Shown: piece by piece, positions 1 to 59,280 of the stretch | Position numbering within the stretch: the stretch's first letter is position 1 | How the letters are laid out: every line of letters starts with the position of its first letter | Assembly (NCBI RefSeq): GCF_030028105.1 | Contig: NC_092382.1 | Location: 806,001-870,000, forward strand | Direction: 5' to 3' | From: Mobula birostris | Taxonomy: Eukaryota | DNA length: 64,000 nt | The notes under the pieces: model-generated | What the model saw: the letters and a program-made list of their open reading frames with translations, nothing else | The model's database searches: none | Told to the model about the DNA's origin: nothing | Position numbers and translations under genes: made by a program

Positions 1-803
1 TTCAGCAACACTTGCGTACAGATTTATCAATCACAGGCACTATTTTGTTTTATAGAATTCGAAGGTAATGGACGAGGACTTAACGCACTGACCCGCCAAG
101 ATTCACTTTCAACTGGATAAGGTCAACACATTCAGTTGTGCTTCCCCAATGCACCTCCACGGAGAGTAAATAAACATCCTCTTGTCTGAAAATAAACAGC
201 GATAATATCTCACAGTTACTGACTTCGTGTAACGTGAATGCAATGGAAGACAAAATGATGTTTGCTGTAGTCTTGCCTGAATATCATTGTACTTACTGCC
301 CTGAGGCCGGTTGTGAGACAGTTTGGCCAGTGAATCCCCTAAAATCTGCAGTGTCCCCTCTGTAATTTCTTGGCACTGAGTTGAAGCAGGGCAGCAAATT
401 ACACAGCATGCACACAGACTGGGTTCGGTTTGGGACAGTCGTCTCCATCTCGCGGGTTCGGCGGGCCGGAATGTGACTTCCCTGGACTTAGTCAGCCACA
501 TAATGTTGCACAATTATGAATAGAATACATGAGTTCTGCAGTGCTTACCATTTTTTTTCCCCGTAACGGCTTTATCCTAATGTGCAGGGCCAGTGCAAGG
601 CTAACTGTAACTGTATGCAATGTCGTATTTCTTTTTCATTTGATTTTTGTGCAATCTGTCAGATTGGTTTAATGATCGGTAGGAGGTGGAGTTCGTGAGC
701 TGCGGGTTCCCGTGCTGTGTCTCTCGGGCTCTAAACCACGTCCTCTGTTGACCGTCATTTCTGCAGTGTCAAGATGGAGAACACTGCGTTGGTCTCTGAG
801 AAC

Positions 804-1714
804 TTAGATAATTCCTATATGAATTAATTGAATAATTGACACGAGTGGATATTTCGCTGCGTTGACGAACTGCTCTCTGAATTTGGACTGAGTTACCCCA
901 TAAATAAAAGTGTTTGTGCAGCAAGTTAATATCATCAGCATGTATCCGGTGTGTTGAAAAATGTATTGAGAGTCATTGTACTTAGTTTGATCCAATCCGG
1001 CAATGACGCTATAAAGGAATTCGGCAACACTCACCGACCACAGGATGATGAAGCTGCCGGAGCTGGTGAGAAGTAAGATCACAGACCTCCTCCTGCTCTC
1101 CATCTCCGGGTCACTGCGGTTCTCCGCCTTGCTCTGACCCCTCAGCCCCTTACGGACGCGACTGGTCACTAGGATGTGTCTGACTGTCAGAGCGTTGAGC
1201 ATTAGTATAAATACGAACGGGAGCAATGGCGTTAGAACTGTCGAAAGCCACCTATATCCCAGCCACCCAGGACCTGTATAGTAATCCGACTTTGTAATAC
1301 AGTCCCAGGGTACATTGTCAATCACTTTCACAGGAAAATATACAAAGGCGTTGGGCACATTTTTAAAACCAAGCAAAACACCGATTGTTGTCAGAATCAC
1401 AGCCGCAGTTTTCCCGGTGCAATACTTTGCTTTCTGCTTCTGGCAACAGATGGCGACAAACCGATCAAATGTAAAAGTGACAGTGAACCAGACAGAACAG
1501 TCAGTGGCTGTCTGTCCCAGGGCAGAGATCACACTGCATACGGGGGTGATGTCCAGGAAAGTCCCAGGGAAGTAATAATAACTGACCCGCCACAATATCA
1601 CCGCAAAGACGATGGTCATTAGATCCGCCGTTGCCATGGCCACCAGGTAGTGAGTGGTGCAGGTAGAGAGACCGCACTTTCCCCGGAACAGGATCACAAT
1701 CGCCACAATATTCA
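804..1714 (-). CDS. GPR139/GPR142-like class A GPCR, gene A, exon 2 (325 aa when spliced to 3114-3180)
   Basis: 7-TM ORF with N in TM1, LVAMATADL (TM2), FTFDRFVAIC (DRY variant), LLPF (TM5), FIILW (TM6) and CCTNTFIY (TM7). Acceptor ccgcag|TG at 1715/1714, stop at 804-806. Confidence 0.92.
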
Positions 1715-3113
1715 CTGCGGGAATAGCAAAAGGAATGAGTGAATTATTATCTCGCCAGTCCATGGTTCTCAGTGTAGAGATTAGCTGTAAATTGAGAACA
1801 TTAACACTTTCCAGACAACTGGCTTCTGGAACTTTCTAAGGTGTAATGCGGGGTTGGCAGAAGCCTCACACACGTGCACTCTGGTGAAAAGGGTGCAGTA
1901 CTCGAGGAGGAGCAGAATTTGGGAAGGAGGCTCTGTCAACTGATCGCTCAGGGTGCTTTGCGGGTATCAATTTCCAACACCCACCAATAGGTTTTCGACT
2001 GATTTCTAATGCTTGGTCGCTCGGCAACTTGCTCAGCGATTCTGATTGCCACGATACCGTCACCTGTGTTCCGGCATTCTCCGCATGCGCAAAACCCCGC
2101 TCCCACACCGCTGCCTATTTACAAATTTCCCAGCAAAGTTCATTCTCCCGTTGTATTATCTTCCTATCCTCCTCGACATCTGTTTGTCACCCGCCCACTG
2201 TGGCCTCCCTTGGCTAGCTACTTATAAGTTCGGTAGCCACTCTTGCGGGTGTTCCTTCACGTTGTTTTCAAGGAATCTGAAGAGAAAGTTCAATTTTCGC
2301 TTTTAAACGTTTTGCCTGACTCGCTGAACGTTTCAAATATGTTACTAGTTAGTGTTTAATCCATCCAATTTCCAAAGGAGAAAACACAATATGTACATCA
2401 AAGCATGTGCCTCTGTTAGGGTTTGCTCCAAATTACTGCAGCGTTATTCTAAATATTTTGATGTTTGTTCTTTCAGATCGGAGAATTGCATGAAACTTAT
2501 CCCGTCTGAACTCTAACTGACACCAGCAGGGCTCTCTCTTAATTCCCTCTTCATTTCTCTGATAATGGGACGTGGAAAAATTCCTGGTTCACTATATCGC
2601 GTGCAGACCCTAATTTGAATCGTGGAAACTCCCGATGGTTCGAGGTGATAGCTACCGTGCTCTCCTGAATCTCACCGGGGATTCGCTTCTCAAGTTCCCT
2701 TCAAACTTGCAGTAATTTCTTAAAACACAAAGCAATACCTTTAAATGTGTATTTAACGCATGTTGCGCTATTGATTCGGGATAACACAAAGCAGCCGGTG
2801 AAGGTGCCGAGCGCACCGGATTATCGGAGGTTATTTTAACAACAGCTTTGCAATGATAATCCAAAACTGCTTGTCATGATTCAGCAAAATGTAGCCTTTT
2901 CCCCGATATCCCACTCTATATCAGTTTCAGCTGCCGGTTTATTTTCAGCGGAGGCCACAGCTGAAACTTCAAGGGAACTTCTGAACGAACACAAAGTTTT
3001 TGTCACAACGTCTGCAGCGCACTCACTGATACACCCGCGATCATGTCGGGAAAGGAACAAGTCCAAAGACCGCGCACACAGAACTGCAAATATTAGTTCG
3101 CCTATGTTCTTAC

Positions 3114-3180
3114 CAGGAACACCAATAACGGCAATGACCATGTACCATATCTTTCTCACACTGTAAAATGTTTCAAGCAT
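3114..3180 (-). CDS. Gene A exon 1 (MLETFYSVRKIWYMVIAVIGVP, phase 1)
   Basis: ATG at 3180, donor G|GTAAGA at 3114/3113. The same 67-nt exon precedes all four intact paralogs and completes TM1 (IGVP-VN). Confidence 0.9.
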
Positions 3181-3420
3181 TCTGTGAAAGATTCAGCCTG
3201 ACTCCCAGCTGCCCGCGATCTCGCTGAAGAAACTCTGAGCTGATGAATCTCCACGCTCATTCATTTCTACTCGCTCCAGCACGCTGAATATTCAATACTA
3301 CACAAGGCTGACGTATCTTACAACAGCCGGGGTAAAAAATAAACATGATGTCAGTCAAGTAAAGTCCCAATTGTGATGAGGTGTGACTAGCTTGATGCGA
3401 AATTGCAACATCGCAAAGAC
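3181..3420 (-). promoter_or_regulatory. Conserved 5' UTR/proximal promoter of gene A
   Basis: About 240-bp block alignable with the same region of genes B, C and D. The TATA position reads TAGAAAT (3263-3269). Confidence 0.6.
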
Positions 3421-4475
3421 GGAGAAATGACGATGTGAAAAGTCAGTGAATGTTGTTGTGAAACACTGCAGGGCCGCCTCTCGGGTTATTGATTATTATT
3501 GCTGAACCGGCTGCCATCAAGGCCTCGTAGCAGTATGAAGCAAAGTAATTCCATCACCGTGCACAGGACCCTGGAATGGGCGCAAGTACTTAAACGGGCC
3601 GAGCATCTGCGTTCATTACATTTATACCAACACAGACAATTGCTTCGCGGATGAACAGAATTGGGAGCGTTGTTGACGGTGGGGTAGACAGCGATATTTA
3701 CATATTTCACCATCTGAACTGCACTTCCACTGTAGATAAAACACAATATCGGGTATTCTGCTTTTTTTTTCTTGTCGTGTTACATCGATGTGCTTATGTA
3801 TTGAATGGTCTGGACTGATTGGCTTTAACATCCTTTGACTGTCTGTACACTCGGTGCAGTAATCAGCTCACAGGCCGTCGGTTATGTGCTGAAATTGATC
3901 AGTTTGACAGATGGTCAGCAAAGGGCAGATTGGGGTCAATATTGCGGTACAGTACGTGTTGGTTTCCTTCCATTGATGAGTAGGGCACGGATATTCACGA
4001 AGAGTGACGGGGTTCTCGAGTGTGATGATGTGGAGACGGACAAGGAAATGGAAGTCCAAGCATCAGCGAAAGCAGCGCTACGGATTGATAATGTGGTGTT
4101 CGGTACATACCGAATACCCGCGTTCACTGACGGGAAAGGTCATGATACAATAATATCTAATATTGGCCTGATTGATGTATCGTAACCTTTCTGTTCTCCG
4201 TAAGTAAAGTGTGTGCTGCGGTGGAGACGATGCAAAAGCATTTCACCAGAAAGTTGCCCAACGTGGAATATTTTAGATATCAGCGGTGAATCTTTCATTC
4301 TCTCCTTGATCCGGAGGAGGAACAGATGCTTCATTCATAGTTTAATAATTATTAGAAACCTGCATGTGTTCACTAGTTATAACCATTTCTCCATATCATG
4401 GAAATCTCATACGAAGAACATAGGATTATTTGATGTGTACATTGTGGCATAAATTAGCGTGAGGTGTTATCTTTA

Positions 4476-17830: not shown

Positions 17831-18514
17831 TTTTTTGTTACCCACCCCTCCCCGCCAGGCACCCTGGGAAATGAGGAAGAAACGTGCTTTTCTCACACAG
17901 TAATTCCAGTCATCTTTAGAAATAGACTTTTTGCAGATGATAATTGGACCTAGTGCAGGCATTCCCTGGGCAGGTGCACACATCGGGAAATTGATACAAA
18001 CTCACTCATTGGATACAGGTAAGCACGAATGTTGAAATTTAAATATCTGTAAATGTGAGCGTTGTCTGCTCGTAGCGTGTGGAGGGACGTGCCGATCAGA
18101 TACCGGATGCAATCAGTTAAATCTCACCGCGGTGTTGTCTACTGACTGCGAGCACGGAGCAGTCCCGAGCTGATCCTCGGTGCGCTCAGTGTGAATTGCG
18201 CCCGGTCTCCTTGTGACGGCAGTATTTCCGTTCGGTGCTCCATTTCCTCACCGTCAACGACAAGCCGGTGAGGAGAGCGGGATTTGTTATCGATTAACGT
18301 GTGGCGGTAACGGCAGCGGAAATATAGTTAAAAATACAAATAAAAGGTAGTTTGAGTTTAATAATTGGTAGGAGGTGGAAGTCGCAGGCTGCAGTTGCCG
18401 AAGTGTCTGTTCCGGATCTGGGTTTCGATCGGGCTCTCAACCACTCTCGCAGCTGCCGCGCTCTCCGCTGAGCGCCAGTTCCGTAGTGTCGAGACGAAAA
18501 AAAGAACTGCGAGC

Positions 18515-19425
18515 TTAGATGTGTTGTTTATTAATTAGTTGAATAATTGACGAGAGCGGATATTTCGCTGTGCTGATGAACTGCTCTCTGAACTTGGACT
18601 GAGTCACCCCATAAATAAACGTGTTTGTGCAGCAACTTAATATCATCAGCATGTATCCGGAGTGTTGAAATATATATTCCGAATCGTTGTAACTATTTTG
18701 ATCCAATCCAGCAATGGTGTAATAAAGGAATTCGGCAACTTTTACTGACCACAGGGTGATGAAGCTTCCGGAGATGGTGAGAAGTAAGATCACAGACCTC
18801 CTCCTGCTCTCCATCTCCGGGTCACTGCGGTTCTCCGCCTTGTTCTGACCCCTCAGCCCCTTACGGACCCGACTGGCCACCAAAATGTGTCTGACTGTCA
18901 GAGCGTTGAACAGCAGTATTAACACGAAGGGGAGCAATGGCGCTAGAACGGTAGAAAGCCAGCTATATCCCACCCACCTGCGATCCGTATAGTAACTCGA
19001 TTTACGAATGCAGCCCCAGGGTATATTATCAATTACTTTCATTGGTCGATACATAAAGAAGTAGGGCACATTTTTAAAACAGAAAAGAACGCCGGTTGTT
19101 GTCAAAACTACAGCCGCAGTTTTCCCCGTGCAATATTTTGTTTTCAGCTTCTGGCAACAGATGGCGACAAACCGATCAAACGTAAAGGTGACAGTGAACC
19201 AGACAGAACAGTCTGTGGCAGCCCTTAAGGGGACATAGTTCACACTGCATACGGCGGTGATGTCCAGAAACGTCCCGGGCAAGTAATAATTAAAGACCCG
19301 CCCCAATATAACCTGAAAGATGATGGTCAGTAGATCCGCCGTTGCCATGGCCACCAGGTAGCGAGTGGTGCAGGTGGAGAGGCCGCACTTTCCCCGGGAC
19401 AGGATCACAATCGCCACTAAATTCA
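18515..19425 (-). CDS. GPR139/GPR142-like GPCR, gene B, exon 2 (325 aa when spliced to 20762-20828)
   Basis: Intact 911-nt exon, acceptor tctccag|TG, same motifs as gene A. Confidence 0.92.
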
Positions 19426-20761
19426 CTGGAGAAACAGCAGAAATAATGAGCGAATTACTATCCCGCCGCCACACGGGTCTCAGCGCAAGAGAAGTGCATA
19501 AAAATTGAGAACAATCAAAGTTTGGAGACAACGCATTTCTGGAGTTTAACAGGTGTAAAGTGGGACTCGTAGATGCCCCGTACAATTACATGCTGGGTGA
19601 ATGGTAACAGTACTCGGTCCAGGAAGAGGAGCAGGGTTTGGGAAGGAGGCATTGTAAACGAATCGGGAAATATTCTTTGGTTAGGAGAAATCATTACAAA
19701 TCTCCAAACATCAAGTTTTTGACATCTATGAAGCTTGGATACATCGGAAATTTCTGATCGACGATGTTTGCTACGTTTCTGTCACATACATTCTGGAATC
19801 ACCCCATGCAGCGAAGCCCCGTTCCCTCCACCTCTGTCTCCCGTTCACATGTCTTCTCTTCCTCCCCAACTCCCGTTTGCCATCCGCGTACAGCGACCTC
19901 TGTTGCTTCGCTTCTTTAAAATTCTGCAACTACGCTTGACTGCGGTCGATTGCAATCAGGAAGTTCTAATTCCCGATTTGAAATGATTTTCATGTATTTT
20001 GAACGCTAGTGCTTAAACCATCCAGTTTCCATAGGAAAGCCAATGTATATTTTTCAAAATATTCGCTCTTTGAGGGGTTGCTCCAGAATTACTGCAGCAT
20101 TATTGTAAATGCCGCAAGGGTTATCGTTCCAGAGCGGAGTATCGTATGTACCTTACCCCGTTCGACCTCCAACAGACACTGCTGGGTTGGCTCTTAACTC
20201 CCTCTTCACTACACGTATCATAGGACATGGAAAGAAACTCTGGTGCACTAAAACGCAAACAGACCCTTGTTTGAATTTTGGAATTTCACGATGGCTGGGA
20301 GTCTAACTCACAAGTGATGTCTACCGTTCTCCGCTGAATCTCGCCGGCGACCCGCTTCCGCGATCCCGTCCAACTTGAAGCAAGTTTTTGAAAACGCAGC
20401 GCAATAGGATAAATCTGAATGTGAAGCATGTTACGCTATTGATTCAGAGTATCACCAAGTAGCCCGTAAAAATGCCGAGCGCGCTGGATTATCGGAGTTT
20501 ACTTTGACAGAGGCTTTGCATTGATAAATCACAAATGTCGGTCATGAATCTGCAAAATGGATCTACCTATTCTATCTTCCGCACTACAGCCGTTTCAGCT
20601 GCCGGTTTATTTTCAGCCGAGGTCACGGATTGAACACAGAGTTCTTTACAATGTCCGCATCGCACTCACTGATACACCGGTATCACAACGCTGTCGGTAA
20701 CTGAAAGAGTCCAACGACCGCGCACACAGGACAGCAAATGTCAGTTCGCCTCTGTTCTTAC

Positions 20762-20828
20762 CTGGAACACCAATAACGGCAATGATCAAGAAGTATATCT
20801 TTCTCACACGGAAAAATGTTTCAAGCAT
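20762..20828 (-). CDS. Gene B exon 1 (MLETFFRVRKIYFLIIAVIGVP)
   Basis: Donor G|GTAAGA at 20762/20761. An in-frame ATG 12 nt upstream (20840) is not shared with the paralogs. Confidence 0.88.
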
Positions 20829-21065
20829 ATTGTGTGACATTCAGCCTGTCTTCCAGCTGCCCGCGATCTCGCTGAAGGAAATTCTGAGCTGATGAATCTC
20901 CACTCTCATTCATTTATATTCGCTCCAGCACACCGAATATTCAATATTACACAAGGCTGACATGTCTTCCAACAGCTGGGATAAAAGTAATCATGATGTC
21001 ATTCAAGTAAATTCCCAATTGTGATGAGGTATGGATAGCTTGACAAGGAATTGCAAAATCTCAAA
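20829..21065 (-). promoter_or_regulatory. Conserved proximal promoter of gene B with TATA box
   Basis: TATAAAT at 20912-20918 (minus) and CAGCTG. Aligns to the A, C and D promoters. Confidence 0.6.
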
Positions 21066-21364
21066 GACGATTCAGAGTCGGTGAATGTTCCCGCGAGAAA
21101 CGCTCAGACTCACCTCTCAGATTCATGATTGTTATTGTTGATCGTGTCATTGCTTGTCTCTATGGACACAGACATCAGAGACCAATGTTGTATTGACATT
21201 GGCTGTTCTGTTTCACTCTGAGAATTGTTACGGTGATAGATCTTACAATAAAATTATATAAAACAGATTAAGTTGTTTGCATGTCCGTGTAATATAGTGA
21301 AGGGTCTCAAACTAATATCGCATCCAGGCTTACGAAGATAGTCAACCCACCAAACCGTTCATCG

Positions 21365-35455: not shown

Positions 35456-35669
35456 TTTTGACACGTACAAGTCGCATGAGGAGCTCCGCAGACCAGGTAG
35501 CATTTATGGAAATGAATAACTAAATAGTCGATGCTTCGGGCCGAGACGCTCCTCAGAGCTGGAGAGGAAAGGGTTAGCTGCTTCCACAACAGCCATTATG
35601 AAACCGAGAGTTCAGCCTGAGAGGGTTTCACAACTATATTCACTGACTGCTCCGTTATGTCGTGTCGTC

Positions 35670-35904
35670 ATTGAGATTTTGCAATTTCGTGTCAAGCTAT
35701 TCCTACATCATCGCAATTGGGATTTCACTTGAATTACATTATTTTTATTTTTATCCCAGCTGTTGGAGACACGTCAGCCTTGTGTAGTATTGAATATTCA
35801 GTGTGCTGGAGCGAGTATAAATGAACGGCCGTGGAGATTCATCAGCTCAGAGTTTCTTCAGCGAGATCGCGAGCAGCTGGAAGACAGGCTGAATCTCACA
35901 CAGC
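35670..35904 (+). promoter_or_regulatory. Conserved proximal promoter/5' UTR of gene C
   Basis: CAGCTG 35757-62, ACGTCA 35771-76, palindrome TGAATATTCA 35791-800, TATAAAT 35816-22. Confidence 0.62.
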
Positions 35905-35971
35905 ATGCTTGAAACATTTTACCTTGTGAGGAAGATATGTCACATGATCATTGCCGTTATTGGTGTTCCTG
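35905..35971 (+). CDS. Gene C exon 1 (MLETFYLVRKICHMIIAVIGVP)
   Basis: ATG at 35905, donor G|GTGAGA. Confidence 0.9.
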
Positions 35972-37051
35972 GTGAGAACATAGGCGAATTAACTTTTGCA
36001 GTTCTGTGTGTACAGTCTTTGGACTCGTTCATTTACCGACAGCGTTGTCATGCCGCTGTGAATGTAAACCCCCTAATCCAGCGCGCTCGGTAGCTTTATG
36101 CGCTACCTGGTATAATTCTATATCAATAGTGCAACCTGCTTTAAATTCAAATGTAAAGACATTGCTCTGTGCTTTATGAAATCGCTGTAAGTGTGAAGGA
36201 AACGCGGGAAGCGACTCGCCAGTGAGCTTCAGGGGAGAGAGGTAGACAGCACTTATGACTTAGACTCCAAACTATCGGGAGTTTCCAACATTTAAATCAG
36301 GGTCTATGCGCGATTTTAGTGCACCAGGGATTGTTTCCATGAACTGTTCCGTGAAGCGATTGGAGTTAGGAGCCAATACAGCGATTTCCGTCAGGGGCTC
36401 TGGAACAATAAGCTTCGCATTCAGAAAAACACTGCAGTGATTTGGAGCGACATCTAAGACAGGAAGATGATTCGAAGTAAGTATATAGTCTATGCTTTAG
36501 AAATTGGATATTTTAAGCACTAACAAGCAAAATATCTGAAATGTTCATCCGGTCAGACACAATATTTAAAAGCGAAAATTGGAACTTTCTGATCCGACAT
36601 ACTGACACCGATCAGAAAAGAATTGGTGTAGGAACCCCAACAAATATTACTTGCAGAATTTAAAAGAAGCGAGGCAGCCGAGGCCCCGTGTGCAACGGGA
36701 ACTGAGGGGGAAGCGAAGACAATCGAACTAGAAAACTAAATTTATCTGAAATTCTTAAATGGAATGAGAAGGAAGGACCGGGATTCTCGATATGCCAAGA
36801 ATGGCAGAACATAGCTAACGGGAAGGCGGCGATCACTACCGCTGAGAATGCGGCCGAGGTATCCAACCGTCAGTAGAAAAGGTAATGATGGGAGAATGAT
36901 ATTGATTTCTACAAAGCACCCTTGGTGATCAGTTAACGATTCCAAAACAAAGTTCCTATTCCAGTACCGAGTATTCTTCTCAATTTCCAACTAATCTAGC
37001 ACATGGAGTGGCGAGACAGTAATTTACTCATTATTTTTGCTGTTCCCCCAG

Positions 37052-37962
37052 TGAATTTAGTGGCGATTGTGATCCTGTCCCGGGGAAAGTGCGGCATCTC
37101 CACCTGCACCACTCGCTACCTGGTGGCCATGGCTACGGCGGATCTACTAACCATCGCCTTTCAGGTCATATTGTGGCGAGTCAGTTATTATTACTTCCCC
37201 GGGACTTTCCTGGACATCACCCCCGTATGCAGTGTGATCTACGCCGTGGGTTTGGCTGCCACAGACTGCTCTGTCTGGTTCACCGTCACTTTCACGTTTG
37301 ATCGGTTTGTCGCCATCTGTAGGCAGAAGCTGGAAGCTGAGTATTGCACCGGGAAAACTGCGGCTGTGATTCTGATAACAAGCGGTGTTTTGTTCTTTTT
37401 TAAAAATGTGCCCATCTTCTTTATATTTCGTCCTGTTAACGTGATTGACAATATACCCTGGGACTGTATTCGAAAGCCTGCCTACTTTGCGGATCCCGGG
37501 TGGGTGGGATATAGAATGTTTTCCACCGTCCTAACGCCATTACTCCCGTTCGTGTTAATACTCCTGTTCAACGCTCTGACAGTCAGACACATCCTAGTGA
37601 CAAGTCGCGTCCGTAAGGGCCTGAGGGGCCATACCAAGGGAGATAACCGCAGTGACCCGGAGATGGAGAGCAGGAGGAGGTCTGTGATCTTACTTCTCAC
37701 CATCTCGGGCAGCTTCATCATCCTGTGGTCGGTGAGAGTTGCCGAATTCCTTTATAACACCATTGCCGTATTGGACCCATTTAATTACAACGTTACGGAA
37801 TACATAGTTGAACACTCCAGTTACATACTGATGTTATTAAGTTGCTGCACAAACTCGTTTATTTATGGGGTGACGCAGACAAAGTTCAGGGAGCAATTCA
37901 TCAGCGCAGCGAAATATCCTCTCACGTCAATTACTCAAATAATTAACAAATGCAATATCTAA
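37052..37962 (+). CDS. GPR139/GPR142-like GPCR, gene C, exon 2 (325 aa spliced)
   Basis: Acceptor ccccag|TG at 37051/37052, intact 911-nt exon ending in TAA. Confidence 0.92.
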
Positions 37963-38713
37963 TGCCTCTCAGAGGCGGTCGCTGATTTCTTTCTGTCTTG
38001 ACGTTACAGAACTGGCGGTCACCGAAGATCGTGCCACATGGGAAAATAAAATTGGTTTAGATCCCGAGAGAGACGCAGCTCGGAAACATCCCCTCCCGCA
38101 CCCACAGCCCACCACGTAACCCTTCTATCAATTATTAAACTCAACCTACCTTTTATTTCTTTTATTGTTTTATTGTCTTTCGCTATATTCCGGCTGCTGT
38201 CACCGCCACGCCACTTTCGATAACGAATCCCACCCTCCGGTGTAAATACTCACCGGTCGAGTGGCCTAAAAGCCGTTGCACTCGGTGACGGAGAGGAAAC
38301 GGAGCAACTGGAAACTAGCGGGAATACTGCTGTCACTAGGAGAACGGGCGGAATCCACACTGAGCGCTCCGGAAATCAGATGGAGCCTGGCCCGTACGCA
38401 GACTGAACAGACAGCGCCACAAAGAGACTTAGCTGACTGTCTCCAACATCGGCCCGTTCTTTGAAACGCTATGAGCAGACAACACTGGCGTGTACAGAGA
38501 TCCTCACTTCAGCTGTGAGTGTCCCTGCCCAGTCAGTTGGTATCAACTTTGTGATGTGTCCACCTGCACAGGCAGTGTCTCTCCAGCGTCCAAATATCAC
38601 CTGCAGAAAGTCTGTAGCTGATGGTGGCTTGCATGACGTTGTGTGTTTTCCTTCCTCATTTCCCTGGGTGTCTTTTAGCAGGTAACAAGACCGTTATTGA
38701 ACGCAAAGCGATC

Positions 38714-49106: not shown

Positions 49107-51764
49107 CTGGAGAAAGAGAATGGAATGACATAAACATTATGATTCGCAATCCGGCACCCCCAACTTAATCGCCCTCCACTATCCGTCAAGGGTAAGGTTG
49201 AGTTACTGTTAACCTCAGATTCACAGCTATCGGAATCCAATGATTCACCAATCACGAGCATTAAAGAATTTCGTCTGATATCCATCGTGAACAGTGTATT
49301 TATTCTTCTGAAATGTTGCCTCATCGTCTTGGACTGCATGGTGCAGGATACATATTTCCAGTACCCAGACTGTCAATCATAGAATCATAGAAATCTACAG
49401 CGCATTACAGGCCCCTCGGCCCACAATGTTGTACCAACCATGTGGACTCAGATGGAGATTATCTGCAACATTTGCAAATCCTTTATCTTGTTCAGTGTGA
49501 ATGAATGCTCAGGTCATTGTTTGAATGAAGCAACTTCGTGACAAAGCGTCCAGTCCACTTAATCCAATTCCCGTCACAGTCCCGCCACATCAGAAGCCAA
49601 GAGGGTGAACATTCCTCTATTGCGAGTAGGTGTTTCTTAAGCAAGGAGCACAAGTTGCACACGATACACCAATTTTTGCCTCATAATGTCGAGACGAAAC
49701 TGGAGTAGGAAAACATTACTCTGACAGTGGCAAAAAGTTACTTGCTGAGAATATCAACTGACCATCTCTGAATCTAACTGGTTGCCCTATTTACACGTGA
49801 ACAATGAATAGTGTTCCAGGTGACCTGGGAATTGGCACACGAGGAATTTCCAATATATTATGCAAATCGCTATTTTGGTAGCATTTCGCTTTTAACTTTG
49901 CCCCATACATTACAGTTGTCTCATTTGTGACCAATAAACATCAACCTAATTGTTCACAGGTTGTTAGAGGGAAAAGATGGAATAGACGTTGAAGTCAAAG
50001 ATCTAAATATTTCGAACACTAATTCTGGTGGCATAAGGCAGGAAGTTGCAAATGTTATATTAGTAAATGACACCGCACAAGTGTGAAGCTTTTGAGAAGA
50101 CATCGGTGGCAGAATGATCAGGTTAGAGTAAAGGGCTGCGCTGGAATAAGCAGGCAAGCTCTTTTGCCAATGGCCATTAAGGGCAATATCAGGAACAATA
50201 CGGAGATGAGGCATCTGCCGGATATACGCAACCGGGATCAATCAGTTCCTTGTTCAGTATAGGGATCATGACAGTGCCTGAGTAGGACAAGGGTTGGCCA
50301 AGAAATACTCCTTACTGAAAAGATAACAGAGAAACCGAAACGATTGATTTTAAAAGTGTGGCTGCAGGGAATAGAGACCGTCCGCATAAATGGTGATCTA
50401 TCTGTAGAACCACAGGAAATGGTGGAACTGTTAAATGAACGCATCTCATCTACAATTACACGTGAGACGGACATTGTGAGTTCACTGCAGGGTTCATTGT
50501 CTGTGAGAGCAGATCAACACTGGAAGAGTTGAAGTTCTGGAGATCTTCATGAATATGGTCTCCAAATTTGAGGAAGGACATTCTTACTACTGAGAGAGTG
50601 CAGCATAGGTTCACGAGGTTAATTCCCGGGATGGCGGGACTGTCATATGTTGAAAGATTGGAGTGATTGGGCTTGTGTACGCTGGAATTTAGTAGGATGA
50701 GAAGGGATCTGATTGAAACATATAAGATTGTTAAGGGATTGGACACGCTAGAGGCAGGAAACATGCTCCCGATTGAGGGGAAGTCCAGAACCAGAGGCCA
50801 CAATTTGAGAATAAGGGATAGGCCATTTAGAACGGTGTTGAGGAAAACTTTTTCACCCAGAGAGCTGTGGATCTGTGGAATGCTCTGCCTCAGAAGGCAG
50901 TGGAGGCCAATTCTCTGGATGCTTTCAGGAAAGAGTTAGATAGAGCTCTTAAAGATAGTGGAGTGAAGGGATATGGGGAGAAGGCAGGAACGGGGTAAAG
51001 ATTGTGCATGATAAGCCATGGTCACAGTGAATGGCGGTGCTGGCTCGAAGGGCCGAATGGCCTACTGCTGCGCCTATGGTCTATTGTATATTGTCTATCC
51101 TGATATCCTCGCCTCCTCGATCCTCTGGGGGAACAAAGCAGAGACTGCTGTGCCCTTGGAAGCGATCTTTGTGTCCTCGTTATCAAACAGTGATGAATGG
51201 GAAGGATGGCGGATGGACAATGTTGTGTCGCAATGTAAGACACAGATAAGCCGGGAACTACTGTAGATGAGCTTCACAACAGTGCAGGGTCAGACAATGG
51301 ATGGGATTCAGATGGACAGGATTTACCTGAAGAGACAAGTGGTGTCGCCGGCGGGGGGTCAGTTTGACCGGGTGGGCAATGCAGTGACAGGTGGAATACA
51401 GTGTATGAAGGTGTGGGGTAGCACTTAGGAAAGAAAGATTAATGCGCAGAGAAGTTTCTAATTGCGGAGGTAATTCAGAAAAAAAGAGATTCATATGAAG
51501 TGACGAGTCGCAGCTCTGGATTTACTGAAGGCTAACGTGCAGGGCAATTGCTTAGTAAAGAAGCGAATGCAATGCCGGCAGAGGAGTCGCATTTGATGCC
51601 ACCGATGGCGTGGAGGACCGGTACGAGGGTGAAGTTAAAGAAAACAGTTTGATTGTTAATTCGTTAGTGGGTTCACAGTTTCTTGGTGAATAGACTTGGG
51701 TTGAGAAAGAGATTACCTGAGAAAGAACAGCAGAAGAGCTCGATGGAGCGAATGAGCCGATTGT

Positions 51765-51965
51765 GCTTCTGTATCCTGTGGTTTAATGTTCTGATTCCGA
51801 GTCGTTCGACCGTCTGTATTGACCATCGGGCCTTTGCCCAAAGTTTTAATAAACTGTATATCGACAGCTTCTGCATCCTGTGGGTTAATGCCGTTTCATT
51901 CGACCGTCAGTATTAACCATCGGGCCTTCGACCGAAGCCTCAATAAACTGTCTATCGACAGCTTC
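51765..51965 (-). repeat. Tandem repeat, ~100-bp unit x2 (mirror of 38714-39020)
   Basis: Same unit as the left arm, one copy fewer. Confidence 0.8.
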
Positions 51966-52715
51966 GATCGCTTTGCGTTCATTAACGGTCTTGTTACCTG
52001 CTAAAAGACACCAAGGTAAATGAGGAAGGAAGACTTCCTTCCTCACAACATCATGCAAGCCACCATCAGCTACAGACTTTCTGCAGGTGATATTTGGACG
52101 CTGGAGAGACACTGCCTGTGCAGGGGGACACATCACAAAGTTGATACCAACTGACTGGGCAGGGACACTCACAGCTGAAGTGAGGATCTCTGTACACGCC
52201 AATGTTGTCTGCTCATAGCGTTTCAAAGAACGGGCCGATGTTGGAGGCAATCAGCTAAGTCTCTTTCTGGCGCTGATTGTTCTGTCTGCGTACGGGCCAG
52301 GCTCCATCTGATTTCCGGAGCGCTCAGTGTGGATTCCGCCCGTTCTCCTAGTGACGGCAGTATTTCCGCTAGTTTCCAGTTGCTCCGTTTCCTCTCCGTC
52401 ACCGAGTGCAACGACTTTTAGGCCACTCGACCGGTGAGTATTTACACCGGAGGGTGGGATTCGTTATCGAAAGTGGCGTGGCGGTGACAGCAGCCGGAAT
52501 ATAGCGAAAGACAATAAAACAATAAAAGGCAGGTTTAGTTTAATAATTGATAGAAGGGTTACGTGGTGGGCTGTGGGTGCGGGAGGGGATGTTTCCGAGC
52601 TGCGTCTCTCTCGGGATCTAAACCAATTTTATTCTCGCATGTGCCACGATCTTCGGTGACCGCCTGCTCTATAACGTCAAGACAGAAAGAAAACAGCGAC
52701 CGCCACTGAGAGGCA

Positions 52716-53626
52716 TTAGATATTGCGTTTGTTAATCATTTGAATAATTGACGTGAGAGGATATTTCGCTGCGCTGATGAACTGCTCTCTGAACTTTGTC
52801 TGCGTTACCCCATAAATAAAAGTGTTTGTACAACAACTTAATAACATCAGCATGTAACCGGTGTGTTCAACTATGTATTCCGTAACGTTGTAATTATTCT
52901 GATCCAATCCGGCGATGGTGTAATAAAGGAATTCGGCAACACTCACCGACCACAGGATGATGAAGCTGCCGGAGATGGTGAGAAGTAAGATCACAGACCT
53001 CCTCCTGCTCTCCATCTCCGGGTCACTGCGGTTATCTCCCTTGTTCTGACCCCTCAGGCCCTTACGGACGCGACTTGTCACTAGGATGTGTCTGACTGTC
53101 AGAGCGTTGAACAGTACTATTAACACGAACGGGAGTAATGGCATTAAAACGGTAGAAAACATTCTATATCCCACCCACCCGGGATCCTCAAAGTAAGCGG
53201 GCTTTCGAATGCAGTCCCAGGGTATGTTGTTAATCACGTTAACAGGACGAAATATAAAGAAGATGGGCATATTTTTAAAACAGAGCAGAACGCCGATTGT
53301 TATCAGAACCACAGCCGCAGTTTTCCCGGTGCAATACTTTGCTTTCAGCTTCTGGCAACAGATGGCGACAAACCGATCAAACGTGAAAGTGACGGTGAAC
53401 CAGACAGAACAGTCTGTGGCAGCCAGACCTACGGCGTAGATCACACTGCATACTGGGGTGATGTCCAGGAAAGTCCCGGGGAAGTAATAATAACTGACCC
53501 GCCACAATACGACCTGAAAGATGATGGTTAGTAGATCGGCCGTTGCCATGGCCACCAGGTAGCGAGTGGTGCAGGTGGAGAGGCCGCACTTTCCCCGGGA
53601 CAGGATCACAGTCGCCACTAAATTCA
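52716..53626 (-). CDS. GPR139/GPR142-like GPCR, gene D, exon 2 (325 aa when spliced to 54935-55001)
   Basis: Acceptor ccccag|TG at 53627/53626, intact 911-nt exon. Confidence 0.92.
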
Positions 53627-54700
53627 CTGGGGGAACGGCAAAAAAGAATGAGTGAATTGCTGTCTTGCCCCTCCATGGGCTGGATTAGCTGAAAATTGAC
53701 AACAATAAAACATTGCGAACAACTCATTTCTGGAGTTTTAAAAGTTGTAAAACGGTACGGTGCTCGGTACTGGAATAGGAACACTGTTTTGGAAGTAGGC
53801 ATTGCCAACTGATCACGGAGGGCGCTTTGTAGAAATCAATATCATTCTCCCATCATCGACTGATTTGTAAAGCCTGGATACCTCGTCCGCTTTCTCAGCA
53901 ATGGTGATCGCCACGTTCTCGTCAGCTAAACTCTGCCACTCTCCGCGTACCGAGAAGCTCGGTCCCTCCACTTCTTTCCATTGACAAATTTCAATGTAAA
54001 TTTAGTTTTCTATTTCGACTGCCTTCGCTTCCCCCTCGGTTTCAGTTTGCACACAGGAGCCTCGGCTGGCATGGTTCTTTTAAATTCTGCAAGTAATATT
54101 TATCGGGGCTCCTATACCCATTCCTTTCTGATCGGTGACAATGTGTCCGATCAGAAAGTTCCAATCTTCTCTGACCGGATGAACGTTTCAGATATTTTGC
54201 TCGTTAGTGCTTAAAACAACCAATTCCTAAAGCGCAGTTACATCGAAACATCTGCCTGTTTTAGATGTCGCTCCAAATCACTGCAGTGTTTCTCTAAATG
54301 ATTCGATGCTTATTGTTCCAGAGCCGCCTATGGCCTTTACCTTACCCTGTCTGACCTCTAACGGAAACCGCTGTATTGGCTCAAAACTCCCGCATCACTT
54401 CACGGAACAGGACATGGAAACAAACCCTGGTGCGCTAAAGCGCGCACAGACCCTGACTTAAAGTTGGAAACTCCGGATGGTTTGGAATCTAAGTCACGTG
54501 ATCTCTACCTCTCTCCCCTGAATCTCACCGGCGATCCGCTTCCCGCGTTTCTTTCACATTTGCAGCAATTTCTTAAAGCACAGCGTAATGCCTTTAGATT
54601 TGAATTTAAAGCAAGTTACACTATTAATATGGAATAATACCAAGTAGCCCATAAAGCTACCGTGCGATTATAAAGGATTACATTAACAGTGGCATCACAA

Positions 54701-54851
54701 GGCATCCGTTAGTCTTGCGAGACCATGGATCTGCGACTGGAAAATCTTCACTCTCCAGGTTGCAGACCTGGGCAAGGTTGTATGGAAGACCAGCAGCTGC
54801 CCATGCTGCAAGTCTCCCCTCTCCACGACACCAGTGTTGTCCAAGGGAAGC
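54701..54851 (-). mobile_element. Short retroposon (RTE-related SINE-like) in the gene D intron
   Basis: 10-bp TSD GGCATCACAA at 54691-54700 and 54852-54861. Empty site in the gene C intron (~36045). Family and orientation are tentative. Confidence 0.75.
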
Positions 54852-54934
54852 GGCATCACAACGCTGTCAGTAACTGAACGAGTCCAAACACTGTATACAC
54901 AGAACAGCAAAAGATAGTTCTCCTAAGTTCTTAC

Positions 54935-55001
54935 CAGGAACACCAATAACGGCAATGATCATGTGCCATATCTTTCTCACGCGGTAGAATGTGTCAAGCA
55001 T
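54935..55001 (-). CDS. Gene D exon 1 (MLDTFYRVRKIWHMIIAVIGVP), not in the ORF track
   Basis: ATG at 55001, donor G|GTAAGA at 54935/54934. Confidence 0.9.
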
Positions 55002-55235
55002 GCTGTGTGAGATTCAGTCCGTCTCCCAGCTGCCCGCGATCTCGCTGAAGAAACTCTGAGCTGATGAATCTCCACGCTCATTCATTTATACTCGCTCCGG
55101 CACACTGAATATTCAATACTACACATAGGGAGACGTGTCTTCCAACAGCTGGGTAAAAATAAACATGATGTAATTCAAGTAAAATCCCAATTGTGATGAG
55201 GTACGGATAGCTTGAAACAAAATTGCAAAATCTAA
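55002..55235 (-). promoter_or_regulatory. Conserved proximal promoter of gene D with TATA box
   Basis: TATAAAT at 55084-55090 (minus), TGAATATTCA and CAGCTG. Confidence 0.6.
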
Positions 55236-55480
55236 CTGATGAAATAATTCGATCCGAGAAGACAGTAAATATGGTTGTGAAACACTCTCAGGCTAAACTC
55301 TCGGTTTCATAATTGCTGTTGTGGGTGTAGTTAACCCATTCCTCTCCAGCTCTGAGGAACGTCTCGGCCCGAAAGGTCGACTGTTTGTTTGCTGATTTCC
55401 ATAGATGCTACCTGATATGCTGAGCTCCTCAATCATATTGTACGTGCATCAAATTAATACAACCCCTGACATGGTAAATC

Positions 55481-55938
55481 TTCCTCTTCTTCTTGCGCCC
55501 TTAACTCCTGGTGGAGTCGTCGGGGCGCCGTCATGACAAGCTTTGCACCAGCTTTTCGGTGTGCTCATCATGAGGCGTGTCTTGCGCATCCGAAACCTGG
55601 CGGAGCCCATCCCTCTCCAGGTTTAACCACAGCCGATTTCCCCCAGCTAGGTGGCTCGCCTTGGTCGTGAGCACTTGGCCGTTATAGTTCATCTGTGAAC
55701 CTCTCCGTCCCGGCCGGGAACTTTATCATGGAAGCCCAGTGGTGCCTGTTAACACCACCCCTCACGTGGTTTAGCCCGCCAGCTGAAGCGGTTTACCGGG
55801 GTATGGCGCTTGGAGCCAACACGTGAGAGATTTAGGAGATGGATGAGGACCAGTGATACCCGTCCACCCTGTCTGGTAGGGAGCAGCATGCCAGATATCA
55901 AAGGTACCACCTCTGTCCAGAGCCGCCTGTACCCCTAT
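55481..55938 (-). mobile_element. Non-autonomous ~460-bp retroposon (RTE/Vingi-like) with (GAA)n tail
   Basis: 10-bp TSD ATGGTAAATC at 55471-80 and 55939-48, 3' tail AAGAAGAAGAGGAAG on the minus strand, no long ORF. Confidence 0.8.
55761..55935 (-). ncRNA. HDV-like (double-pseudoknot) self-cleaving ribozyme motif
   Basis: P1 GGGGTAC (55935-29)/ATACCCC; P2 CTCACGTGTT/ACCACGTGAG; P3 GGC/GCC with L3 TCCAAGC; GG for P1.1; P4 CCGC/GCGG; J4/2 GCTAA. Confidence 0.75.
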
Positions 55939-56125
55939 ATGGTAAATCAGCTCCCATGAAATTTCACATCCTAATAACGCATAGTAATTCAATGCCCATC
56001 CACATGGCTCCCGAAATGATGCAAATGCTTAAACCGACAGAGAATCTACATTGATTACAGTTGTACCAACAGTGACAATTGTTTTGCGGCTGTACTGAAT
56101 CGGTAGCGTTGTTGACCGCGAGGTA

Positions 56126-58050
56126 CAGCGGTGATAGCAAGTGTGTGAAACCTGTAGAATTTTCTCTATTGCAGCACAAATATGACCTAAAATGTGTACA
56201 GACTTTCATGTACGTTCTAAAACTAGACTAAGCGAACACAATTAAATAAATAACACAAAAACATTGTACTTGTTAATTTATTTACCGTGACTAATGATCC
56301 AATTTTACATGTATTTGCTGGAAAGGTATGTGAACCTCTGGGTGAACGCGTCCTACAAAAGCTATTTGAAATCAAGTGTTCCAATCAATGAGATAGGACT
56401 GGAGGTGTCGGTTGTGGAAATTGCCTGCCCTATTAAAAACGAAACACAAAATCAGGTTACTGATAGAGCCCGCTCTTCTCAAAGAGGATCTGTTTATCGA
56501 CATCATGCTTCGATCGAAACGAATTTCAGAGAACCTTAGAAGAAGAATTGTAGAGATACATGACGCTGGAAATGGCTACAGAAGTATTTCTAATTACCTG
56601 AGTGTTCAGAAGTCCACAAATAGAGAAACTGTCAACAAGCAGAGGAAAGTCGGTGCTGTTGCTACTGTACCTGCGGGTGTGCATTCTGCAAAGGTCACGC
56701 CAAGCGAACAGCGTGCAGTGCTGAAGGAGGTGAGAAAAAACACAAGGGTAACAGCAAAAGATCTGCAGAAACCTACAACTTGCGACTCTGTCCATGTGAC
56801 TACTACAAGAAAAACGCTGAATATGAATGATGCTTATTGAAAGCACCACGGGGGAAACCACTGCTCTCCAAACAAAAAAACTAATAACATTGCTGCACGT
56901 CTCAAGTTTGCAAAAGGCGACCTCGATGTTCTACAATGCCTCCGGGACAATCTTCGGTGGATAGATGAGAAAAAAAAGAGGTGAACATTTTGGTGACGGA
57001 GGATGAGAGGTGACCTGACAGAGGTGTATAAGATGATGAGAGGCATTGATCGTGTGGATAGTCAGAGAGTTTTCCTCGGGCTGAAATGGCTAACACGAAG
57101 GGGCATAGCTTCAGGGTGCCTGGACACAGGATAGGGTTATCACACAGAGAGCGGTGAGTGCGCGGAATGCACTGCCTGCGACGGTGCTGGAGGCGATACA
57201 ATGGGGCCTTTTAAGGGACTGTTAGATAGGCACAAGTTGCTTAGAAAAAGTGCTATGCAGTTGGGTAATTCTAAGCAGGTTACATGGTCGGCACAATACT
57301 GTGGGCCTATGGGCCTGGAATCTGCTGTAGATTTCTATGTAAATGCTCATTGCATGTCTGGAGGGAAAAGGGCCCTGCACACCAACGCCAATACACCGTC
57401 CCAGGTTTGGTGCCGCAGGGCCTAGACAGCCTGCAACCACAGAGGGAAAAACGAATTCAAAATTGTACCAAGACATTTTGCAGAGGGACTCTAGTGTCGT
57501 AATCCATCACCTGAGGCTTAATAGAAGTTGAACAATGTAACAAGCATTGATCCGAAAGATATGAGTAATTCAACAACAGCATGGTATACAAAGAAGAAAA
57601 TTCTTGTCCTGTAATGGCCGAGTCAAAGTTCTGAACTTAATCCGTAGAAATGTTGTGGATGGACGTGAAGTAAGTAGTCATGCAAGGAGGCCTAGCAACG
57701 CCCCAGAGTTGAAGCGGCTTTGTCGGGAGGAATGACCTAAAATTCCTCCAGGTCAATGTGCAGGACTGTTCAATTGCTACCGGAAACGTTTGTTTAAAGG
57801 TATTGCTGTACAAGGTGGTCACACCTGTATTGAAATCAAAGGTTCACATACTTTTTTTTCCCAACAAATATATGTAACGTTAGATAATATTTTCCTTAAA
57901 TAAATGAACAAGTATAATATTTTATGTTTTTATTTAATTGGGTTCTCTTTATCGAGTTTTAGGACCTATGTGAAGATCGGATCAAATTTTCGGTCATATT
58001 TATGTAGAAAGAGATCAAATTGAACAGGGTTCACAAACTTTCCAGCACCG
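56126..58050 (+). mobile_element. Decayed near-full-length Tc1 transposon (IR/DR-type long TIRs)
   Basis: TA TSDs at 56124-5 and 58051-2. ~210-bp TIRs with an internal repeat (GTGAACC). Transposase N-terminus MLRSKRISENLRRRIVEIHDAGNGYRSIS and WPSQSSELNP near 57615. Empty site upstream of gene B (~22210). Confidence 0.9.
56993..57340 (+). mobile_element. CR1 3' fragment nested in the Tc1 transposase
   Basis: RRMRGDLTEVYKMMRGIDRVDSQ plus CR1 3' UTR. Confidence 0.8.
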
Positions 58051-58376
58051 TAGGTAGTCATATGTACCTATTTGATATTCTGAATTGCACTTTTTCTGCA
58101 AAGATAACACGACATTGTATTTTCAAGGTTAAATCAGTGAAACTGGCCCCATCCGGAACTGGATCGCTGTTGTTCCCGACGATTACCCACATCTCGTCAT
58201 ATCTCCACAGCGGGGAAGGCAGGTCTGAGACAGTGTGACCCGTGCTTGGTGATAGATAAGCAGCTGCTCACCGCCTCTGGCGCTCATGGCCATTGGCGGA
58301 AACCCGAACCCGTGTCCATTCCCGGAGTATGTGTTCAATAATTCCCAGTGTCTGTTCTCTGTCTCTCTCCCTGCAG

Positions 58377-59280
58377 TGAACTTAGTGGCGATTGTGATCC
58401 TGTCCCGGGGAAAGTGTGGCCTCTCTACCTGTACCACCCGCTACCTGGTGGCCACGGCAGCGGCGGATCTACTGACCGTTGTCACCGAGGTCTTTGTGCG
58501 TCAAGTCATAAATTATTACTTTCCGTGGAATTTTTTGAACACTACCCCGATGTGCAGAGTTGTCGAGGTACTGAGGTTCACAGCCACATACTGTTCTGTC
58601 TGGTTCACCGTCATGTTCACTGTTGATCGCTTTGTCGCTATTTGCTGTCAGAAACTAAAAACAAAATATTGCACCGGGAAAACTGCGGCTGTGGTTCTAA
58701 CAACAACCGCCGTGCTGTCCTTTCTGAAAAAATGTTCCCCGTTACTTCCTCTGGGAACCCAGAGAGATCATCGAGAATGTAACATGGTTCTGCAAGCTCA
58801 TGGAATATACTTTCACTGACCCCGGATGGGTAGTATACGATTAGCTTGATATAGTTTTGAATCCGTTCATTCGTTGTGATCCTGTTACTCAACGCTCTGA
58901 CATTCAGGCACATTTTAGTGGCCAGTCGGGTCCGTAAGGGACTGAGAGGTCAGGGCAAAGGCGAGAATCGCAGTGACCCGGAGATGGAGAGCAGGAGGAG
59001 GTCTGTGATCTTACTCCTCGCCATCTCCGGAAGCTTCATCACCCTGTGGCTGACACTAGTTGTAAATTTCATGTATTATGAGATCAAAGGAATTGGATTC
59101 GATTTCAATGATTCTGAGGTGATCTTTCACAACGCCAGGATTTTGCTGAAGAATTTCAGCTGCTGCACGAGCACATTTATTTACGCTGTGACTCAGTCGA
59201 AATTCAGGGAGCAGGTGATCAGCGCGGTGAAATATTCGTTCAACTGGGTGCGACAGGTCATTAATAAAGCCGCGTCCTGA
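58377..59280 (+). pseudogene. GPR139-like GPCR pseudogene (exon 2 only, second subfamily)
   Basis: Acceptor ctgcag|TG, +1 A in the run at 58727-32, TGG>TAG at 58842-44 and a small deletion near 58870. No exon 1 found upstream. Confidence 0.88.

Follow-up and report, generated by a model that had tools for sequence, protein, structure and literature searches.

A predicted HDV-like ribozyme at the 5' end of a short RTE-type LINE derivative in Mobula birostris

A short retroposon lies upstream of gene D, a rhodopsin-family GPCR gene, in the 64-kb stretch analyzed here (the window) of the 4.0-Gb genome of Mobula birostris, and its first nucleotides, read on the minus strand, resemble an HDV-like ribozyme. 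The locus raises the question of what this element is, whether a ribozyme sets its 5' end, and whether gene D is affected. We consider it very likely that the element derives from an RTE-type LINE by internal deletion and that its first ~180 nt are the HDV-like ribozyme of that LINE, with a predicted cut before G+1 that likely sets the 5' end of the copied RNA.

The fold and its class features

The whole short element (458 nt, 55938-55481; all features described here are on the minus strand) is flanked by a perfect 10-bp TSD, the 5' copy of which (55939..55948) includes a 6-nt stretch complementary to the GGUAAA of the ribozyme and is repeated exactly at 55471..55480. In agreement with an earlier note on this DNA, which had read an HDV-type fold with a cut site 3 nt from the TSD, all five helices, the L3 U·G, and C55774 were found in their places, and 3 extra nt (55936..55938), likely added at insertion, separated the TSD from G55935. 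The fold is a nested double pseudoknot with P1, P1.1, P2, P3, and P4 in order. The 5' strand of P1 (55929..55935) begins at G55935, which is G+1, with the predicted cut immediately 5' of it, and the opposite strand, P1' (55798-55804), is followed by the two P1.1 G's (55796-55797). J1/2 (55830..55928; 99 nt to the extended P2) is predicted to be a self-contained P1.2-like hairpin domain and leads to the 5' strand of P2 (55818..55829), which can form up to 12 bp, with one U-C mismatch, with P2' (55759..55770). P3 (55815-55817), L3 UCCAAGC (55808-55814), and P3' (55805-55807) come next in the 5'-to-3' direction, and P4 (55776..55791) is a 16-nt stem-loop of 5 bp followed by J4/2 GCUAA (55771..55775), in which the predicted catalytic C, at 55774, was kept in 63/65 copies of the family. 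P3, L3, P3', P1', the P1.1 G's, and P2' were placed from the sequence and the alignment of copies.

The HDV descriptor or covariance check that the earlier note proposed gave a divided result: a strict descriptor, built from canonical features after the element had been seen, matched the core, but Rfam scans of the element returned no HDV-type family at E<=5 or E<=10. This core was the only one detected by the strict descriptor in the 64-kb window, and 60 dinucleotide-resampled control windows contained 0.05 strict cores per window and 0 with CC/GG P1.1. A looser first descriptor gave several chance matches besides the core. The nested MFE of nt 55935-55755 was ordinary (z -0.63), as expected because the ribozyme stretch is a pseudoknot.

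Features of the class were mostly retained in the copies. The two L3 C's were able to form the P1.1 C-G pairs with the two G's after P1' in 57/64 and 61/65 copies, and the L3 U and G, which form a reverse wobble in HDV-like ribozymes as described in PMC3386971, were kept (UCCAAGC in 49/65 copies and UCCAAGU in 9/65). The P2 U-C mismatch belongs to the family consensus (61/65 copies), and J1/2 is predicted to be one hairpin in the consensuses of both this family and a sister family described below (z -2.3 and -3.8). In the consensus, P1 has 7/7 pairs with G1-C at its base, whereas the window copy has 6/7 with a terminal C-A. The mismatch had been attributed to CpG decay, which did not hold, as only one of the 64 copies that have a letter at this P1' position lacked the A; the pair at P1 nt 7 was the consensus U-A in 52/64 copies and the minority variant C-A in 8/64, and the mismatch of the window copy arose by U-to-C change in the 5' strand of P1. 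We rejected the C at P1 nt 7 as the mark of a subfamily; seven carriers, both short and long, had no other diagnostic site in common.

Two features depart from a published HDV descriptor given in PMC6326823. The nucleotide before the L3 G is A in both family consensuses, whereas the descriptor fixes U-C-G there, that is, a C before this G. In an inactive sow-bug R2 ribozyme, a C-to-A change in L3 is accompanied by loss of the G, according to PMC3774820. In J4/2, GCUAA (57/65 copies) has the catalytic C and the final A, but U follows the C, so that the second letter falls outside the CRRA of the descriptor (PMC6326823); GCUAA is also the J4/2 described for the active drz-Agam-2-1 (PMC4513843 and PMC4908430). 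Because the descriptor-fixed L3 C is stably A, we file the fold as a variant that, judged from the sequence, likely works like an HDV-like ribozyme rather than as a formal member.

Copies of the family, their common start, and a sister family

A DNA search, in which 40 of 1332 candidates were scored and 30 loci were fetched, contributed 29 copies that are biased towards full length, other copy sets being less so. The pooled fetched loci contained 116 core-covering matches, of which 89 were left after removal of flank duplicates (66 of this family and 23 of the sister family), and one tandem second match was dropped, leaving 65 family copies for analysis. As the reading of the earlier note requires, the family begins at this G, the common sequence starting abruptly at G55935: it started at nt 1-3 in 57/65 copies, at nt 4-10 in 5 more, and beyond that in the remaining 3. 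Upstream of G55935 nothing was common among the 65 copies, in which the majority base share was 0.26-0.52 at positions -12 to -1 vs 0.74-0.95 at +1 to +12. All 18 copies anchored only on the core started at nt 1-3, and among 30 protein-anchored LINE loci, 16 started at nt 1-2 and 20 within nt 1-9, the other 10 being 5' truncated. A clear TSD was present in 30 of 39 short copies examined and ended 3 nt or less from G+1 in 23 of these. A repeat of the first bases was seen upstream in 3/65 copies. TSDs, a simple-repeat tail, and many dispersed copies are all present in the short family.

A degenerate core pattern had 78 genomic matches, about 66 of them in this family, and recovered 12/29 and 5/18 known copies; roughly 150 to 250 copies may therefore keep the 5' end. 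Divergence from the consensus was 4.0% in 40 short copies and 5.4% in 23 long copies, and 25/65 copies, the window copy included, were scored here as having an intact core. Change within the family amounted to 15.9% at CpG sites and, at non-CpG sites, to 2.9% in the core, 4.0% in J1/2, and 2.7% downstream, rates which include 18 copies chosen on an exact core. These changes look like neutral decay, with no sign of selection after insertion. Near-identical copies were clustered on one contig (G000:C24; L109-L115, L119-L122, and L126-L127) and have likely multiplied through segmental duplication, not through retrotransposition.

The test of covariation proposed by the earlier note came out in favor of the fold, as the consensus has the pairings and the sister family carries compensated changes in P1, P3, and P2. 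The sister LINE shares about 55-60% endonuclease identity with the LINE of this family, and its consensus differs from ours at 18/200 positions. P1 pair 6 is changed on both sides from A-U to G-C, the middle P3 pair is changed on both sides from G-C to C-G, and a P2 pair is changed from G-C to C-G together with a 1-nt deletion of the mismatched U. No change in the sister consensus disrupts a pair, except at nt 1, which is eroded (G-C in only 7/23 copies), and the sister L3 is changed only at the pyrimidine that ends it. By a rough estimate, two clean compensated pairs would arise by chance with p 1e-4. In an alignment of 34/88 copies (20 + 14), selected because their 5' ends are intact, 90.2% of cells paired, whereas slid partners gave 37-53%; the covariation score was 0.176 vs at most 0.116. 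As only two related clades are present, shuffle counts of this alignment are not probabilities, and the covariation support amounts to one split between two related families. A pattern fixing P3 to P1' but leaving the 5' strands of P1 and P2 unconstrained had found 17/23 sister copies, and a pattern freeing most of P3' and all of P1' gave the same family split. Between the two families, J1/2 (~99 nt) has undergone 9 changes.

In contigs of four other organisms (four studies), the match was confined to 55747-55870, with diverging flanks, and no other letter was listed in P3, L3, or the catalytic C. These came from 20 small-share runs found by shared 31-mers, a procedure that favors the best-kept stretch, and such contigs cannot show starts; no RNA run was among those listed. 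As seen in the aligned sequences, both the compensated changes and the retention of the catalytic C speak for selection acting on the fold itself.

The sister family (L200-L217, L160-L168, and L179) is older, its copies differing by 11% from their own consensus, and apparently has a short form of its own, which differs in its 3' end and tail. Two of its copies (L160 and L163) have the 5' UTR inverted relative to the ORF, which we take to resemble the 5' inversions of twin priming.

The parent LINE and the short form

Several core matches continued not as the short form but as ~3.4-kb LINE copies in the same genome, and the short form joins 393 nt from the start of this RTE-type LINE to 66 nt from its end. 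The two LINE ends correspond to consensus nt 1-393 and 394-453 and are separated by about 2.9 kb that holds endonuclease and RT frames, where an RVT_1 domain was also found; both ends lay at the ~2.9-kb spacing in 8/13 fetched stretches, and a ninth has an insertion. In the window copy, the remainder of the LINE 5' UTR and the first ~20 ORF codons, with the likely start ATG at 55610, occupy 55551..55758. The deletion junction (55551/55550) was placed by the match to long LINE copies and is followed by the LINE 3' end (55495..55550), which comprises the last codons, the 3' UTR, and a small stem-loop (55516-55505) of a type common to other RTE 3' ends. The sequence ends in an (AAG)n-like tail (55481..55494). 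Among 40 short copies, two types of deletion junction dominated (25 and 12 copies), and 3 copies had others. The short form leaves the LINE ORF frame about 20 codons after the likely ATG; an in-frame deletion relative to the LINE ORF was rejected, the endonuclease being in a different frame.

The earlier note had spoken of a SINE family, a designation that has to be given up. The head of the short form is identical with the LINE 5' end and is no small-RNA head; a tRNA search of the element found none, and the consensus had no match to an A or B box. The short form is instead an internal-deletion derivative of a ribozyme-bearing RTE-type LINE and is a bipartite non-autonomous LINE in the sense in which PMC5786205 describes these. 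Because the short form consists of the two ends of the LINE, the predicted ribozyme is the LINE's own.

Elements of the RTE clade have one ~1000-aa ORF with AP endonuclease and RT and a short 3' UTR ending in a microsatellite. The LINE found here has a single ~1000-aa ORF with AP endonuclease and RT, a short 3' UTR, and a microsatellite tail, and we call it RTE-type on this anatomy (single ORF, short 3' UTR, 3' stem-loop, and microsatellite tail). Full-length relatives of its protein were ~1000-aa proteins with EN and RT, the best at 55-67% identity. A PDB search returned L1 and R2 proteins only, and the 9 loci returned by a metagenome scan were distant (32-44% identity) and neither carried the fold nor matched at the DNA level. 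Among named relatives of the protein, the best (P0001 and P0007) is from a crab (67% identity) and raises the idea of horizontal transfer among marine animals. LINEs of the same genome found by DUF6451 were rejected as the parent; they belong to other RTE-type families with only 25-38% identity to this LINE, and their loci (L031-L070) had no match to the consensus and shared only similar 3' stem-loops. The tails of the two forms differ, long copies (L117, L118, L121-L124, and L126-L128) ending in (CAAGG)n or (GGAA)n and short copies in (AAG)n.

Other RTE-type families were encountered in this genome. A second short family (L071-L085), found by a 3'-end pattern, combines an RTE-type 3' end with a ~250-nt body, and the strict descriptor detected no HDV fold in it. 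Three more RTE-type families (L170-L199), two of them with sharp G-rich 5' ends, likewise had no HDV fold under the descriptor, which also missed decayed copies of the sister family; these families may use a promoter or another ribozyme.

Proposed mechanism, gene D, and known ribozymes

In the mechanism that we propose, a copy would be transcribed from upstream host signals or from its own, and the ribozyme would cut at G+1, removing the flank and any untemplated bases. By analogy with the known HDV-like ribozymes described in PMC8495972, the J4/2 C would act as general acid together with Mg2+. The stable J1/2 hairpin and the 12-bp P2 may pinch P1 and P2 together, as for drz-Agam-2-1, a stable J1/2 plus a long P2 having been described to speed cleavage (PMC4908430). 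The LINE protein would then bind the retained 3' stem-loop and tail in trans, and target-primed reverse transcription would insert a new copy, leaving a TSD of ~6-15 bp. Release from longer transcripts and mobilization in trans are proposed by analogy with R2 SIDEs and NARTc, as described in PMC3414825 and PMC3185411.

As to gene D (52716..55090; TATA-like box 55090-55084, coding part of exon 1 55001-54935, end of exon 2 52716), the earlier note had suggested that the element, being co-oriented with the gene, could cleave read-through RNA. Co-orientation stands, but an effect is unsupported, as the element lies upstream of the TATA-like box, the paralogues lack it, and predictions make this a weakened copy. 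Between the end of the element and the TATA-like box lie ~390 nt, and 480 nt separate the element from exon 1 and its start codon downstream; being upstream of this box, the element is likely outside the gene D mRNA, and no other copy lay alongside the paralogous GPCR genes in the window. The predicted J1/2 energy was -33.0 kcal/mol (z -0.5) in the window copy vs -40.9 (z -2.3) in the consensus. In a nested model of RNA cut after P4, the TSD is predicted to pair with GGUAAA and so to extend P1 over the P1.1 G's, with a pair probability of about 0.8; such flank pairing is a known inhibitory pairing in the account of PMC8495972. Mismatches in P1 have been linked to poor cleavage, as reported in PMC3774820, although that of the window copy is at the distal end. 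The window copy was 4% diverged in nt 1-200, similar to the family mean. The copy is old (about 4-6% diverged) and, on these models, probably weakened, and it likely does nothing to gene D.

The window contains several two-exon rhodopsin-family GPCR paralogues or fragments (796-3467, 17857-21070, 35457-38917, 48251-49128, 51765-55453, and 58364-59242) and an inverted duplication within this cluster (36042-40863 / 49920-54703). Window positions 49920-57914 and 38808-42857 are duplicated at about 21.77 Mb of contig G000:C17 (L002 and L129) at 98.5% and 97.0% identity, respectively, the element included.

Other explanations of these data differ in how well they fare. The earlier note had inferred a promoter-less family; a promoter may also lie in the 5' UTR. 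An internal RNA polymerase II promoter at +1 might set the 5' end, with the fold coming second, as a backup, in a translation-related role (as in L1Tc Pr77), or as a ribozyme slowed by the L3 change. The 5' boundary data are compatible with either initiation or cleavage, L1Tc has a promoter and a ribozyme within one 77-nt stretch as described in PMC3185411, and the J1/2 sequence is kept between the families beyond the need of a plain spacer. We nevertheless regard this explanation as unlikely, since the compensated P1, P3, and P2 changes and the kept catalytic C suggest that the fold itself has been selected and the stretch kept in other organisms is centered on the core. That a G-rich repeat end reads as this fold by chance, as the missing Rfam match and the ordinary nested folding energy might suggest, seems extremely unlikely to us; the descriptor control, the exact coincidence with the 5' end of the family, and the compensated changes have largely refuted it already.

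Domestication of the window copy, which would regulate gene D through cleavage of its read-through or 5'-extended transcripts, appears highly improbable. Its orientation and its position 480 nt upstream of the start codon, its intact core (a property it shares with the other copies among the 25/65), and its retention in the 98.5% segmental duplicate would fit such a role, but it is upstream of the TATA-like box and likely outside the mRNA, the GPCR paralogues in the window do without it, its divergence is that of the family with no sign of selection after insertion, and the P1 mismatch, the weaker J1/2, and the flank predicted to pair with the P1.1 G's all argue against it. A wider reading, which we put forward tentatively and think somewhat less probable than not, is that an active L3-A ribozyme variant heads a wide RTE lineage in jawed vertebrates and other animals, shares an ancestor with drz-Agam-2, and alone defines the 5' end; two sister LINEs would therefore each have spawned a promoter-less short form. 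Such a variant would be invisible to standard screens because A replaces the descriptor-fixed L3 C.

The ribozyme drz-Agam-2-1 of Anopheles gambiae is linked to RTE elements. Compared by eye with its descriptions in PMC4908430 and PMC4513843, it appears to be the closest characterized RNA to the fold predicted here. Both have P1.1 GG followed by UAA (GGUAA), J4/2 GCUAA, a P2 of ~12 bp, and a large stable J1/2 hairpin; L3 begins with UCCA and ends in G-pyrimidine in both, the L3 of the sister family being one letter apart, and in both the 3' arm of J1/2 has, in matching order, the motifs GUCCUCAU and CUCCUA (seen by eye). In contrast to drz-Agam-2-1 as described there, L3 nt 5 is A here and C there, the sequences of P1, P2, and P3 differ, and J1/2 has 99 nt here. 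The P4 of drz-Agam-2-1 is a long branched domain, that of the present fold a 16-nt stem-loop. drz-Agam-2-1 is reported as a fast-cleaving ribozyme (PMC4908430), and the likeness drawn here is one of sequence and predicted fold.

HDV-like ribozymes of the RTE clade go back to Ruminski et al. 2011, as cited in PMC6765202 and PMC5786205, and, as in those, the predicted ribozyme is at the 5' end of an RTE-type LINE. Like RTESINE1/2, WALLSI3, and Bov-A as described in PMC5786205, the short form joins the 5' and 3' ends of its parent LINE, lacks a small-RNA head, and has a microsatellite tail. That paper proposes a ribozyme as the reason why bipartite RTEs keep the LINE 5' end; whereas the ribozyme is a proposal there, a fold, boundary, and covariation are seen in copies here. 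R2 SIDEs (PMC3414825) and NARTc (PMC3185411) are likewise described as short internally deleted LINE derivatives retaining an HDV-like ribozyme, and theirs cleave in vitro, whereas that of the present family is predicted. Unlike R2, which is rDNA specific, and L1Tc, which is from trypanosomes, the element here is a dispersed RTE-type element of a jawed vertebrate. A literature search by title and abstract found nothing on this family or on RTE ribozymes of cartilaginous fish; earlier supplements (e.g., that of Ruminski 2011) and Repbase may hold it.

Ribozyme-headed RTEs and ribozyme-headed short LINE derivatives are thus already in print, as described in PMC6765202 and PMC5786205, and R2, L1Tc, and the short forms of both already exemplify the mechanism. 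The present family adds copy-level support (the boundary, the TSD offset, and compensated pairs) to the ribozyme proposal made for RTE short forms in PMC5786205 and likely extends such ribozymes to cartilaginous fish. The family amounts to dozens of natural variants of the predicted ribozyme, and if the L3 variant cleaves, descriptor searches would have missed a class of vertebrate ribozymes.
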